Of a stretch of 64,000 nucleotides of DNA, positions 29,103 to 35,600 are shown piece by piece. The position numbers and the translations under genes are program-made. How positions within the stretch are numbered: position 1 is the stretch's first letter; the number at the start of each line of letters is the position of its first letter. A model generated the notes under the pieces. That model made no database searches. It was not told the DNA's origin and worked only from the letters and a program-made list of their open reading frames with translations. The stretch is taken from NCBI GenBank assembly GCA_017499595.2, contig CM038998.1:1178001-1242000 (forward strand). The letters run 5' to 3'. Source of the stretch: Psilocybe cubensis (lineage: Eukaryota).

Positions 29103-29390
29103 GCTTTTATGGCTGCAATGCCAAAGGGACCCTCATAGGACTTTAAGGTTTCGGACAAGGACAGAACTGTATAGATAGTAATCGTGGACTTCTGCATTTT
29201 TACCTTAGTTACATACATCCCTCCGGACTTAATTCATTGGACGCTTGAAAGCCAGCAAAGAAAAACTTACGCCTTTTCTGATCATGGAACACTGAAATTC
29301 AAAGGGATGAGGCCATAGTCCAGGAATAGAGGATAGTAAATATCCATTTGTTGCTTTATGGTAAAGACAGCGACGGCAGTAGCCTAGTCC

Positions 29391-31645
29391 TCACCCACCC
29401 ACGGAACCATCAACAGGTTTCTTGGCACCCCGAGGGTTTTTCCTTTCCAATTCTTCCCGAAGAGAAGCAAATAAGCGCTGGGTGCGCTCCGCATTCGGTT
29501 TCTGGATGATCTGCAGAGACGGCCATTTGGCTCAGATGCATAACCGACCCTGAGGGGAAAGCAACAATTTCATACCTCTTTACAGCAGGTGATTAATTTG
29601 TCAATGAGCATCGTCTGTCCGTTCTGAGCGTCCTCCAGATCTTTCCTCAATTGTTGGTTCTGGTTGACGAGATGACATAATGAGAGAGGAGTGGGGGTGG
29701 GTTTGCAAAAAGGAGAGGAAAAAATTATCATCATTGCCTCAGAACGAAGGAATTATGACTGGTTGTGCAAATGATTGCATACCTCTTCCTCTTGTTTACT
29801 TGATCTAGCTTTCTCCCCCTCTGCTAACTGCTTTTGCTCGGCAGCTCGAGCCCGAGAGAGCAGAACTTCCAGCTCCTTCGAGCGAATGACACACTCGAAA
29901 TGGCGTTCCCGAAGCTCGTACTGACGTAGTACTTCTTTCAGACGCTCGCGGACGCTTTGAGGTATGATTAGTGAAAGATAATCAACGCGCAACTATATAT
30001 CCTTACACTCCATCGAAAATCTCTTCGATAGTCCGCCTCGCTCTATAAAGTTCAAGTCAGCCGAATTCTAAAGAGAAAGGAATGGTTTATTTTATTACTC
30101 CTGAGGGTTATCCGTCCAATTCTTCTTCAGTTTCTCGCGACGGGGTTCCACGTGTTCCTCCTAGAATGATTTGGTCTCTTGAAATTTAGAGGCGTAAAGT
30201 AAAGCTCACCCATTCCTCTGAACCACCCCCTCCCTCTGTCAAATCCATCATCTCCACAGCTACAATTTCATCCCCTTCATCAATCCCAATCTCCTCGGGA
30301 GTCTGTTCAGCTTCCAACATACGCCCATTATATGTGAAGATAAACTGCATGCCCGAGCTCGACCCCGTAGAGCCAGAATAATGAGTGCTTGCCGCGTCCG
30401 TCTTCGCCGACCCGTTCATTGACCCAAGGTCCTCCCCGCCTCCACTCCGTTCCATCCGTTCAGTCCACGAGTTGATCAGACGGGAAAGTTTGGTCTTGCG
30501 GGATATCTTGAAGAACAACTCGGCACGGTATCGGCAAACCACTTTCACAACGATGTCGGGCATTTCGCGGTACTTTACGTCCTGTTGCTTCGCTTTGTCT
30601 GCACGCTTGGCGAAGTCGCTTTTCATGCGGGCTAACTGGGATAACAAATGAATAGATAGCAGAGAGAAATGGGGATAGGAGGACGATGGTTTACCTCTTC
30701 TTGGGCTTCTTCTACGCTTTGTGCTAGGCGTTTCCCGTCCTCCTACAACGAAAATATTAAATCGTGGTCAATTGAGCTCGTTGAATGAGGCGCACTCGTA
30801 GACGTTTGTTGTCCTAAGATCAAAAACATGAGGCTTCATAAGAAATAGCTTGGATTTAAAGGTGTTAAGAGTTTATTGCCGCACTTTCTGGAGTTCACGA
30901 GCGAGGTTCTCCATTTTAGTTTTCGTCTGATTGGCTTTGGTTAACTGCCCTTTAGCTACAGTTGTCAAATGAATAGTCATTCAAAATTTGTTTAAAGAAG
31001 ATTTAAATGATAAAGACGCACCCGCATCCTTGTCCTTGACCAACTTCTGTTTCTCCTTAGAATGATCTCGTTCCATGCGCTTGAGCTCGGCGAACTGGAG
31101 TGACGAGAGTGAACATTCTGACCATCATGTATGGGTTCCGAGCATGACGTTACCAATTCGATGTATTTGCTATGAATGGCATTCTCTTCTAATCCTTTCA
31201 CTGATTTCTGTGCCTCCTCAGCTGGATAAATGAGCAAACGGGGTGGTCAACGCATGGTAGGACGCAGGCCTCATGGAAATTTGTACGCACCAAATCTCCT
31301 CTCCTCCTCTTCCTCCAGAACCTCCTCCTCCTCCAGCGCAGCTATTCGATTTTTCAGAGACTCGTACATAGTGGCAGGGTCGATAGGAACGTCGTTCCGC
31401 TTCTTCCCCTTGGAAGTCTGCGCGGGTGGAGGGTGGTGGCCATTGACATCTGACGAGCAGCAGCAACAGCGGTGAACAGAACTATTAAGCGTTTGAACAG
31501 AATGCACAGGCGCACTATTTGTCTGATTTGGCGGCGCGGGGGGTGCAGTGGCAGGTGCCGGAGGAGCTGGACCGGCTGGTGGTGGTTTGGGCTGTCTGGG
31601 AGGCGGCGCGGTGTGCTGGGGAGTGCTCGTGTCGTTGGTGTTCAT
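29391..31645 (-). CDS. Taxilin-family coiled-coil protein with an inserted SUMO/Rad60-like ubiquitin-fold domain, multi-exon
   Basis: KMENLARELQKDNKRLREDG and RERLKEVLRQYELRERHF...KELEV resemble taxilin blocks; between them IVVKVV..ELFFKISRKTKLSRLINSW...FIFTYNGRMLEAEQTPEEIGIDEGDEIVAV resembles SUMO. Last exon less certain. Confidence 0.75.
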
Positions 31646-32698
31646 TGGGAGCAAGACACCCTGACGACGAGAAGGGGAGTGAAATTGCGGGAGGAATAGT
31701 TATGAGGAAAACAAAAGTTTACAAACCAAGTGTGGGTGATGGCAATGTTCTTTGCTGGACAGAAAAGGGAATGCTTATGGGACCCTTGTTTGCACAAGTC
31801 CCGTCTCACTCTCTCATGCAAATCTCAACTTTGTTCTGCTACGATTGACATACATGGTCGCTCACGCTTAATTGGACTGCGTTTATGAGACCGAACAAGA
31901 AATTTGTATTTAATTACATGGAATGTACTGCGCGGAAGAAAATTGTCTTTTCGCTTTTTGGTCAAGTGCATGGCCACTGAACGTCACAAAATGGCATCGC
32001 CAGCGAGGCGGGAGACTCAAAAAGTCAAGAGAATAATCGGAAATCCTGCGCTAAGCTTGCGACTCACTATGAGCCGGACGCGTCCAAAATAGATCCACGA
32101 CAGGAAACGGGTCATTTGATATTAATGCGACAAACTTGGATACTCGCTCGCAATTTGAGAGGCCCAACGAAAGTCAGCAGGTAGGCTTGAGGTGGCTCTA
32201 GGATCTTGAGAATGACTTTCACGACAGTGAGAAGCCGAGAAATTTTGAGTGTCTAATCTCCACTACGCAGTAGCGACACGGAGCTTTTCGATTCAAATCT
32301 CTTCGAGAAAGTCGATATTGCTGGCGTCCCAAGAATAGATTACCGGAAAGACTGCTCTCCGAAAGTGTCCTGGGATAGTCGAGGAGAATGATGCAAGTCA
32401 TAACCATCTTTCTGATTGACGCACATAGATCCTAGGAAAGCGTAAAAGCATATCTGCTTTATCAGAGACAGGGAGAAAGGTGGCTGCAAGTTCCTCTGGG
32501 AGCACAAACAAGACGTTCACATAGGCGGTAACCACTTGGTGTCGTCCGACGATAAAAGAGGCATGTAGTGGGAGGAGTCAAGTACATTGCCAAGCCCTAA
32601 CCTAGAATAAGAAAATAACGTACACGTGATGGGTCGCGTTCACGAGCGTGGGACACTGAGCTCGATCGTTTGCTTTGACCCGTCCCCTAACCAGTGTA

Positions 32699-35600
32699 AT
32701 GTCCCGTTCATGTGAGTCTCCTGCTCACAATACACTTTTTCTTGTGCTCAATGACAAAGGAAGTGTCGGGATCACCTGAACGTAAAAGACAACGACTCTC
32801 TTCACCCACATACGATGATCAGGTCGAAGGCTTCACCCAGGAGGACTTGGCCGCATTTGATGAGATAGAGTTACGGTTATCACAGCCAACGAATAGTTCA
32901 CGTCCGCCTGTTGCGCATTTGAACTTTGACGAACATGAAAACTTTGAAACCCCCAGTGTGTCACGAATAAAGAGGAACCTTGACTGGCATAGTTCACAAC
33001 CAAATGAATCGACTTCGTTTCCAGGTTTCACCTCTGCAAATGCCATCGACTCCAACCTCCGAGATGACCCAGAAAATCCTTTCACCATAGGCTCTTCCAA
33101 AACCACGAAAGAACGGTCTATGTCTGCATTTACTCCACCTCTCTTGGGCTTTGCCTCTGCATCAAAGCTTTTAGAGGAATCCCGGCACTTCGAACGGTCA
33201 CCGTCACCTGAAGAACCACCTCCCGAACCAAATTACGATGGCTGGTTTAAACCAGCTCCTATAGGTGCACCTATGGGCTTCCAAACCGCAGCTTTTGCCT
33301 CTACCGCCTCGGCGATCCCAGCTTTCCGGAAAGCATCTACAATAGCGAATACCGTCGATGCTCCGAGCTCCCAGCCTCCTAGAGAAGATTCAGACATGGA
33401 TTCGTGGTTCAAGTCGGCACCAGCCAATATGCCTTTGCCTGGATTTACATCCGCATCTGGACTACCTGGCTTTAAGAAACCGTCTATCAATACCAAGGGT
33501 GGCGGTGTTATCCTCCCTTCAAAGGAGGCCTTGGCTAAAGCAAAAGCTTTACTCGAATCTTGGGACAATGAGGAGAACATGGAAATAAACATGCCCGTAA
33601 ATAATGAAAATGACCATGCTATTGAAAAGCCGCATATATTCCCTGGCCTTAAACCCGCTTCTGTCGACGAGTCTCTTCAGTCTCCTCAAAGAAAAGCCTT
33701 TTCCTCAGTGATAAATACTCCGAAGCCACCAGTAACACCTGGCTCTGGTTTTACACGGGCCTCGCTTTCAGCTGTACAACCAAAGAATACTTCATCACCG
33801 AGTCTGCAACATCGCCCAGGTGCATTTAAGCCGCCATCGTTCAACGCACCAAGGCCCAGCCCAATTGTTAATTCACCTCTAAATCCAAATCGCATGGCAC
33901 CATCACTAGGATTTACATCAGCTGCTGCTCAGCATGGCCACCCGTTGTCATTACCCCCCATTGTCGCTTCACGCGCTGTTAATGGAACACCATCTTCATT
34001 TACTACCCCATTACGAGACAAGGCACCTCCGAGAATCCGTACAACCCCTGCCCCTTTCAAGACTCCGTTCAAACCTGGTATGGGCCCAGGCAGACCTGCT
34101 CGTCCTGCTCCCGTTCAAACACCTAAACCCAGCACGCCTCAGCAGCGACATCTGGTTGGCAATATAGCGCCGGCGGCGAAAGAGCCTGTGAACCGCACCA
34201 TCAATGAACGACTTTCATCTAACCTTCCCAGAAAGACATTTTTTAACTTGAGTAAGTGTTGTGATTGAGTGATGGATATGTGGTATCTGATGGTTCCTAA
34301 AAAGCCGCTGGTTCAAATAGAAACAGTTTAGCAAATTCAGGGCTGTATCCACAAAGATACAATATCCAGGACCTGGAATACTTCGGAGTGTATGATTTTT
34401 TTTCACATTATCAAATCGCAACGTCTAACAATTCTACAGCAATCACACCACTCTTGCCCAAATCACGCCTGACACTGCGATATATTACACCTTCCACACC
34501 ACTGAGGCAACACCTCCGCCAAACACACCCTCCACGCCCAAAACTCTCCTCGACCCTGCGGCCGCGCTAAAGGAGCTACTGGATCGTGGATGTACGCTCG
34601 CGACGAAGCCATGGGTGGATAATCATTGGTGCTTGATTCTGTGGAAGCTCGCGGGTATGGTGATGCTTGACCCGGAGAAAGAGGCGCATCCAGATACGAC
34701 GAGATGGCGCTGGGCGGAGGTGATCAGGCAGCTGTTGTATCGGTACGTTTTTCCTGTCTTATTTGTATTATGTGCGTGCCATGTTGATTGTCGTATATGC
34801 GACATAGGTACGAACGTGAGCTAAATGGCGGGACTAGACCACCACTTCGAAAGATTGCGAACCAGGACGCTCCCCCTGCATTTCCGTTGGTGTTATGTGT
34901 TTCCAACATCTTTTGGTCACCGCCTGGTATGACGGAGGACGGGCTGCCTATCGAGCCACACCCGGAGCTGGAGGTGACGGACGGATGGTACAGACTACGA
35001 GCGCAAGTCGATGCACCGATGGCGCGCGCTGTAAGGAAAGGTGTGCTCTGTGTGGGGAGGAAGATTGGTGTTGCTGGAGCAAAAGTGCGTTTTGATCATC
35101 ATTTGCTTAATGATGGTTCGGTGAAGTTGATTATGTTCGCTATGTTTGCTTTGACCATATAGCTGGAGACAGAGAGGAAAGAGCCTATGGAAATTCTCGA
35201 CGCGTATAACTCGACGAAGCTTGTTTTTGCGGGCAACTCGTCACATCTAATGCCGTGGCATGCGAAGCTGGGGTTCATGCGCGGCCCGTGCATCTCGACG
35301 CTGCATAGTCTGACGCCGGACGGGGGTATAGTGACGGCGTTAGATTTCGTGATTACCCAGGTATGCATTTTGTCACCGTTGTTGTATAGCTTGTGGCAAT
35401 TTTTTTTTTACTTTTGTTCTGTGGTGTAGGTCCATGCTATTGCGTTTATTGAGATGTTTGAGGGCGAGGATGGGAAAAAGTATCAAGAGGGTCCATGGAA
35501 GGAGGCTGAGGAAAGCAGACTCAATGAGCAATGGAAAGTACGTCGTGGGTCACTATTTAATACAAGAGCACATAAACTCAATATACTGAAATGTAGAAAA

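Follow-up and report, generated by a model that had tools for sequence, protein, structure and literature searches.

A predicted SUMO-like domain within the taxilin coiled coil of Psilocybe cubensis and other Agaricomycotina

The 64,000-nucleotide (nt) stretch of Psilocybe cubensis DNA analyzed here (GenBank assembly GCA_017499595.2, contig CM038998.1, positions 1,178,001 to 1,242,000 of the forward strand; hereafter the window) carries on its minus strand a gene for a taxilin-family protein whose coiled coil is interrupted by a predicted beta-grasp domain resembling the small ubiquitin-related modifier, SUMO. The N-terminal half of the taxilin domain, the SUMO-like domain (SLD) and the C-terminal half of the taxilin domain are present in one message, since intron-free contigs in public assemblies join all of the exons, and the protein is one polypeptide from one messenger RNA. 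Taxilins are long coiled-coil proteins that in animals bind free syntaxins and are linked to vesicle traffic. The reading that we prefer, with a rough probability of 0.55, is that the SLD is an uncleaved, built-in SUMO mimic that would dock partners bearing SUMO-interaction motifs (SIMs) onto the taxilin coiled coil, as judged from sequence comparisons and predicted structures. The principal features, with amino acid (aa) positions in the predicted protein, are as follows.

29391..31645, minus strand: coding sequence of the SLD-taxilin gene, 13 exons and 12 GT..AG introns, 488 codons plus stop.
30630..31216, minus strand: taxilin N-terminal half, aa 99-191, Pfam profile positions 5-105, introns included.
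30210..30635, minus strand: exon 8, 426 nt, phase 0-0, 142 codons, aa 190-331.
30237..30560, minus strand: SUMO-like beta-grasp domain, aa 215-322, recognized with Pfam, AlphaFold2, Foldseek and phmmer.
29579..30121, minus strand: taxilin C-terminal half, about aa 345-448, introns included and boundaries approximate.

The initial annotation of this DNA, made from the letters alone, had pointed to a SUMO/Rad60-SLD pattern at this position and to the insertion of a domain into a taxilin coiled coil, and both proposals hold. The Pfam model Rad60-SLD (PF11976) scores 39.3 bits for the translation of exon 8 and 36.5 bits for the entire protein (cut-off 23.8), and the Taxilin model matches in two stretches around it within the one polypeptide. 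The beta-grasp fold that had been expected of the segment is also predicted: for the exon-8 product, AlphaFold2 (with an alignment of 41 sequences) gives a helix followed by beta-beta-alpha-beta-beta-alpha-beta, with predicted local distance difference test (pLDDT) values of 95-97 in the core and a disordered loop at residues 67-92 of the product. In a Foldseek search of the PDB, SUMO or SUMO-fusion chains account for all 50 ranked hits (43 rows listed), and no Rad60, Esc2 or NFATC2IP domain is among the 50; the top SUMO hits have target template-modelling (TM) scores of 0.82-0.86 with expect values (E) down to 3e-7. A phmmer search of the PDB sequences places tomato SUMO and Arabidopsis SUMO2 first (E 1.1e-8), followed by Smt3, and the segments alike to plant SUMO are beta2/alpha1, which aligns best, and beta3-beta5. 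The full-length AlphaFold2 model has a disordered N-terminus, helices at aa 68-103, 111-211, 328-344, 350-452 and 456-473, and the domain at aa 217-318, and Foldseek with this model returns SUMO hits to the domain only. Judged by sequence and predicted fold, the domain is derived from, or still closest to, true SUMO.

The Rad60-SLD match is itself split in two stretches in Pfam by a loop between alpha1 and beta3.

30351..30446, minus strand: variable loop of the SLD between alpha1 and beta3, aa 253-284, disordered (pLDDT below 50 at aa 255-282).

Across the relatives (see below) this loop is 30-60 residues long and variable in sequence. It keeps a semi-conserved N-G-[ST]-A-K-x-[DE]-A-A-S-T, in which N263 is at least 90% conserved, and this stretch may be a regulatory or modification site.

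The assignment of the flanks to taxilin also stands, and the Taxilin profile (PF09728) matches the deposited P. cubensis protein (P0002) in two stretches with 75.9 bits (cut-off 30.3). The N-terminal half corresponds to exons 3-7 plus the first two codons of exon 8. On the other side, the exon-11 translation, which contains Y-E-L-R-E-R-H-F, matches profile positions 137-192, and the second stretch of the orthologue P0116 places aa 345-448 on profile positions 113-212. Nothing in the protein matches profile positions ~212-302 in Pfam, so the distal taxilin block that had been noted as missing is really absent; the protein ends ~15 residues past its last helix. Canonical taxilins cover the profile from position 1 to 274 or as far as 302, either unbroken or as two pieces that adjoin. 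The uninterrupted coiled coil of ~300 positions by which a taxilin is recognized is not found here, the match being split at ~105/113 and positions ~212-302 being absent. In an alignment to the taxilin of Rhizophagus, aa 3-191 and aa 365-472 are 35% and 32% identical, respectively, and the gap between these aligned blocks is 173 residues versus 30 in the Rhizophagus protein, a surplus of 143. The two blocks are thus near-contiguous in an ordinary taxilin, as the initial annotation had stated for those of animals.

The taxilin profile match stops two residues after the start of exon 8, and this exon contains the end of the upstream helix, the entire SLD, the SIM-like tail and a run of glycines. 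Because the 143-residue surplus compares with 142 codons, the phase is 0-0 and the exon boundary lies at the end of the taxilin match, the insert is essentially one symmetric exon. Exon insertion would leave a single symmetric exon of this kind. Since the insert is one in-frame exon, a clean deletion of it is possible.

The 13-exon model, derived from three-frame translation and the joints of public assemblies, has a coding sequence of 1467 nt, and its spliced translation is P0002 letter for letter (488 aa). The splice model first proposed is the same for all other exons and introns and had missed one intron, at 31450..31515 within the first coding exon. Two runs of one study (X1 and X2) each provide one intron-free contig, of 1602 or 1606 nt, that spans the whole coding sequence and covers 29331..31720 in X1 and 29362..31755 in X2. 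Ten joints are listed in these contigs, all of them CT..AC on the plus strand and GT..AG for the gene, and two more are implied; the contig numbering leaves exact room for two micro-exons. The label 'RNA' for X1 and X2 is a guess, and the evidence that they represent transcripts is the removal of all introns at GT..AG. Run X3, from a different study, contains the stretch unspliced in one piece. At window position 29255, in an intergenic or 3' region, the window has G and X3 has C, 56 letters from the contig end. The micro-exons, which both fall in the most conserved taxilin block, are the following.

30796..30813, minus strand: 18-nt micro-exon coding D-N-K-R-L-R, required to reproduce P0002.
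30695..30742, minus strand: 48-nt micro-exon, required to reproduce P0002.

The NCBI name of P0002 is 'Small ubiquitin-related modifier 1 [Psilocybe cubensis]', which hints at a SUMO gene and at an annotation artefact, the wrong merger of two genes or of taxilin with a SUMO gene lying inside one of its introns; at least one of the relatives (P0081) is an evident merged model with listerin. However, exon 8 is a single open frame that runs unbroken from the coiled-coil helix into the SLD, all of the exons are joined in the intron-free contigs, and 118 of the 120 relatives listed, which come from many independent annotations, show the same order of parts. We regard such an artefact as scarcely credible, and the initial annotation's own caveat, that transcripts might show two separate genes, does not apply, as one spliced contig spans the coding sequence in each of X1 and X2. 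The database name is misleading and is corrected by the present result.

A total of 249 longer proteins in the database match the exon-8 product at E <= 0.001, so the association of SLD and taxilin is not a chance match; the counts given for relatives are over the 120 that are listed (P0002-P0121). Both PF09728 and PF11976 are present in 118 of these, the other two being short fragments with PF11976 only, and the source names point to many orders of Agaricomycetes. A phmmer search of the whole library gave 549 proteins at E <= 0.001, and 20 of the 150 representatives listed from it were looked up, 10 of them being scanned with Pfam. Rad60-SLD is found by Pfam also in Clavulina, Rhizoctonia and two Serendipita proteins, and the SLD is likewise present in Botryobasidium and Tulasnella. 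In the proteins of Phaffia (Tremellomycetes) and a Tremellales sp., BLASTP aligns through the SLD at the same site and Pfam misses it, and Mrakia has a more diverged copy. Six proteins passed in a search with the Phaffia protein toward other basidiomycete lineages, in which coiled-coil words crowded the candidates. The Atlas cluster has 57 members, all from Basidiomycota; every one of them (100%) has Taxilin, and 93% have Rad60-SLD.

Canonical fungal taxilins give a different picture. A profile of four found 534 proteins, and among the 120 listed all have PF09728 and none has PF11976. Names are available for 105 of the 120, with no basidiomycete among those named; judged by name they are chytrids, Glomeromycota, Mortierellomycota, Zoopagomycota, a nucleariid and many Ascomycota, the lineage being confirmed for Saitoella. 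Because Agaricomycetes and Tremellomycetes carry the SLD and the canonical taxilins listed are without it, the insertion appears to have arisen within Basidiomycota, at or before the ancestor of Agaricomycotina, a dating that draws on these two classes of the phylum. The SLD would then have resided inside taxilin since before Agaricomycetes and Tremellomycetes diverged.

The 150 representatives listed from the whole-library search include 25 short ones (counted by hand) whose match begins within query aa 187-202 and stops within aa 322-333. They are proteins of 134-258 aa, taken from assemblies of metagenomes or runs, that span only the equivalent of exon 8 and often start at the Met of M-K-S-D-F, which suggests that in many other fungi, too, the SLD is encoded by one uninterrupted exon. 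P0081 (Mycena citricolor, 919 aa) has a listerin-like C-terminal part (PF22999, PF23009) ahead of a complete SLD-taxilin, and is probably a merged model of neighbouring genes and not a real fusion. The architecture itself is apparently undescribed in print, as the initial annotation had supposed: no description was found in the papers searched, supplements aside. It is present in the databases under automatic names, which include 'Ubiquitin-like domain-containing protein' and 'Rad60/SUMO-like domain-containing protein'.

Conservation within the domain was counted in an alignment of 56 Agaricomycete rows including the query (A1), and it is unevenly distributed. Invariant columns make up 20 of 38 in aa 215-252 (beta1-beta2-alpha1) and 5 of 32 in beta3-beta5; there are none among the 32 of the loop (aa 253-284), and 5 of 7 in the tail (aa 317-323). 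Among the invariant residues are the charged or polar K232, S234, R235, K236, K238 and R249. In real SUMO the beta2/alpha1 face is the groove that binds SIMs, and because this is the most constrained surface of the SLD, we infer that it would dock SIM-bearing partners.

The second conserved element is the tail, which follows directly after the last strand.

30234..30254, minus strand: invariant tail E-M-M-D-L-T-E, aa 317-323, SIMb-like, with acidic residues next.

The form E-[LMIV]-[MLIV]-D-L-[TAS] is present at this place in all 120 listed relatives, and E317, D320 and L321 are still invariant when the Tremellomycetes are added. By sequence the tail has the two hydrophobic residues, the D-L-T and the acidic flank of a SIMb, with Mrakia deviating. 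The VIDLT of PIAS1, or an (I/V)DLT core, is a known SIM (PMC3901395, PMC4907222).

A quite different explanation for the domain is that it is a passive hinge or spacer, the beta-grasp being kept as a rigid break between two ~100-residue helices with no SUMO-like recognition. The helices on either side (aa 111-211 and 350-452) are indeed similar in length, and ubiquitin-like folds are often structural modules. However, a spacer would need neither invariant charged or polar residues on the beta2/alpha1 face nor an E-x-M-D-L-T tail kept invariant throughout the Agaricomycetes, and the likeness to true SUMO is still detectable by sequence, at the E of 1.1e-8 given above. We consider the hinge unlikely.

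The glycines that follow the tail had given rise to a further proposal in the initial annotation, that the coiled coil is cleavable and its N-terminal half could end in SUMO-Gly-Gly.

30222..30233, minus strand: G-G-G-G run, aa 324-327, a lineage-specific variant of E-G-P-G.

On this account a Ulp/SENP-type protease would cleave behind the Gly run, and the N-terminal half thus released would have at its end a SUMO-like domain with an exposed Gly-Gly and might be conjugatable. In P. cubensis and its nearest relatives the G-G-G-G does lie only a few residues past the last strand of a SUMO-like domain, but the pattern does not extend far: a GG within six residues after the tail motif is present in only 16 of the 120 listed relatives, all among those closest to Psilocybe, and the commonest forms after the tail are E-G-P-G-L (28) and E-G-P-G-T (21). 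No GG is present in the tails read from Cantharellales, Sebacinales and Tremellomycetes, those of Botryobasidium, Clavulina, Rhizoctonia, Serendipita, Phaffia, the Tremellales sp. and Mrakia, so that early-branching Agaricomycetes and Tremellomycetes alike are without it. Column 324 is a gap in 41 of the 56 aligned sequences, so that one Gly is an insertion, and column 326 is Pro in 33 of the 56, so that another Gly replaces a proline. The Gly pair moreover starts 8 residues after Val316, and SUMO tails place their Gly-Gly about two residues nearer to the last strand. The domain is thus not followed directly by the conserved Gly-Gly that marks a SUMO modifier. As the initial annotation itself held that an unconserved Gly-Gly would tell against cleavage, the idea is refuted as a family trait, and cleavage as a peculiarity of the Psilocybe lineage has in our view only a very small probability. 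On these alignments the Gly run is a recent local quirk of the Psilocybe lineage.

A second di-Gly is present at the end of the whole protein.

29394..29402, minus strand: C-terminal V-G-G of the whole protein; 71 of the 120 listed relatives end in GG.

The protein end reads D-G-P-V-G-G and lies ~165 residues beyond the SUMO-like domain, and a terminal GG is also seen in Botryobasidium (Cantharellales). Because 71 of the 120, including Botryobasidium, end in this way, the terminal di-Gly is an old feature that has been conserved. A role as a recognition signal or degron-type end is conceivable; for ordinary activation of a ubiquitin-like protein it seems too far from the beta-grasp.

The Pfam family that matches the domain is Rad60-SLD, and this raises the possibility of an E2 cofactor like Rad60, Esc2 or NFATC2IP, whose SLD would contact Ubc9 on its backside and so recruit sumoylation to the location of taxilin. 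According to PMC11065178, SLD2 of the Rad60-SLD family binds Ubc9, and charge reversal at Rad60 E380 abolishes that binding. Position 292 of the SLD-taxilins aligns to the Asp of the F-L-F-D-G-R-R stretch in tomato SUMO. Its residue is N, G, S or A throughout the 56 rows of A1, and in a set of 40 relatives (A2) M and R occur besides these four; it is acidic in neither set. We take position 292 to be the equivalent of Rad60 E380, and a Rad60-like role as a Ubc9 cofactor is disfavoured because the acidic Ubc9-contact residue is missing there. The protein has, moreover, one internal Rad60-SLD match (aa ~215-322) and not the two tandem C-terminal SLDs of the RENi proteins (Rad60, Esc2, NFATC2IP), and, as noted above, none of the 50 ranked Foldseek hits is a RENi SLD. 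A cofactor role is in our view improbable.

The reading of the SLD as an uncleaved SUMO mimic would have the following course. After the split from Ascomycota, one symmetric exon would have inserted a SUMO-derived beta-grasp between taxilin profile positions ~105 and ~113, and the distal quarter of the taxilin domain would have been lost. The SLD would be neither cut nor conjugated and would stand as a permanent SUMO mimic between two ~100-residue helices, its groove docking SIM-bearing partners on the taxilin scaffold without sumoylation. Of the two readings offered in the initial annotation, the SUMO-mimic scaffold is therefore the better one, its comparison with Rad60 and Esc2 being only a loose one.

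Several observations weigh against the mimic. The tail of Mrakia is E-F-R-D-L-G, so the paired hydrophobics are not universal, and the tail more generally has Met or Leu where a classic SIMb has Val or Ile; it could also merely pack on the domain. Part of the beta2/alpha1 invariance must reflect the hydrophobic core and not a binding face, and in the literature searched, judged by title and start of abstract, we found nothing on the function of fungal taxilins.

The position of the tail has consequences of its own. It is essentially linker-free, and by a geometric argument it seems too close to reach the groove of its own domain; its partner may therefore be the SLD of a second chain, which would link taxilins. 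A more speculative extension, which we put forward only tentatively and think doubtful, is that SLD and tail form a self-complementary pair, unable to close within one chain, that links coiled coils head-to-tail, in a SUMO-independent network like those of polySUMO and polySIM. Such a network could capture cellular SIM proteins at membranes. Complex prediction with the exon-8 product (two copies, aa 24-142) gave 0.05 and 0.08 (mark 0.32), in runs without controls or alignment, and these values count neither for nor against such pairing. The structure of the gene, its single transcript, the predicted fold, the site of insertion and the conservation, with a Gly-Gly that is not conserved, are what the data show; SIM binding, self-association and any link to membrane traffic are what we infer here.

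Two further features flank the taxilin gene. The segment 28146..29099 (plus strand) is the last large exon of a UDPGP-family gene of the UTP-sugar-1-phosphate uridylyltransferase type (PF01704, E 3.3e-24), which is convergent with the taxilin gene; its stop and the 3' end of the taxilin transcript contig are ~230 nt apart. On the upstream side, an open frame of 522 codons (32700..34265, plus strand) gives no Pfam match at E <= 0.001.

To our knowledge, integral SUMO-like domains have so far been tied mainly to the Rad60, Esc2 and NFATC2IP genome-stability factors. Here a domain predicted to be closer to real SUMO lies within a coiled-coil family that in animals is linked to syntaxins and vesicle traffic, and the face that binds SIMs in SUMO is strongly constrained in it. 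If that face is used, reversible sumoylation would be replaceable by a genetically fused SUMO surface, and there would be a first handle on the function of fungal taxilins. If the network also exists, a hard-wired, enzyme-free SUMO-SIM assembly would have been fixed in a whole fungal subphylum.

The SLD-taxilins can be compared with four known systems. With the taxilin family (alpha-, beta- and gamma-taxilin in animals, 'alpha-taxilin' in ascomycetes, chytrids and Glomeromycota) they share the N-terminal conserved helix and the Y-E-L-R-E-x-H-F block, and they differ in that the coiled coil is broken by ~143 extra residues with a SUMO-like domain. SUMO proper (Smt3, SUMO1-3 and the plant SUMOs) is closest to the domain in both fold and sequence, but is a free precursor of ~100 aa whereas the domain here is internal, has the extra disordered loop of 30-60 residues between alpha1 and beta3, and has no conserved terminal Gly-Gly. 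For the family as a whole, a domain that is internal, interrupted by the loop and without that Gly-Gly cannot be a conjugatable modifier. The RENi proteins (Rad60, Esc2, NFATC2IP/NIP45) likewise have an unconjugated SUMO-like domain within a larger protein and match the same Rad60-SLD Pfam model. However, they have two C-terminal SLDs and not one in the middle of a coiled coil, they are genome-stability factors where the host here is a taxilin, and the SLD described here is nearer to real SUMO in the PDB searches. Lastly, the tail [LMI]-M-D-L-T-E shares with the PIAS-type SIMb (V-I-D-L-T with an acidic flank) the D-L-T core and the two preceding hydrophobic residues, but it has Met or Leu for Val or Ile and stands directly after a SUMO-like domain in the same chain.

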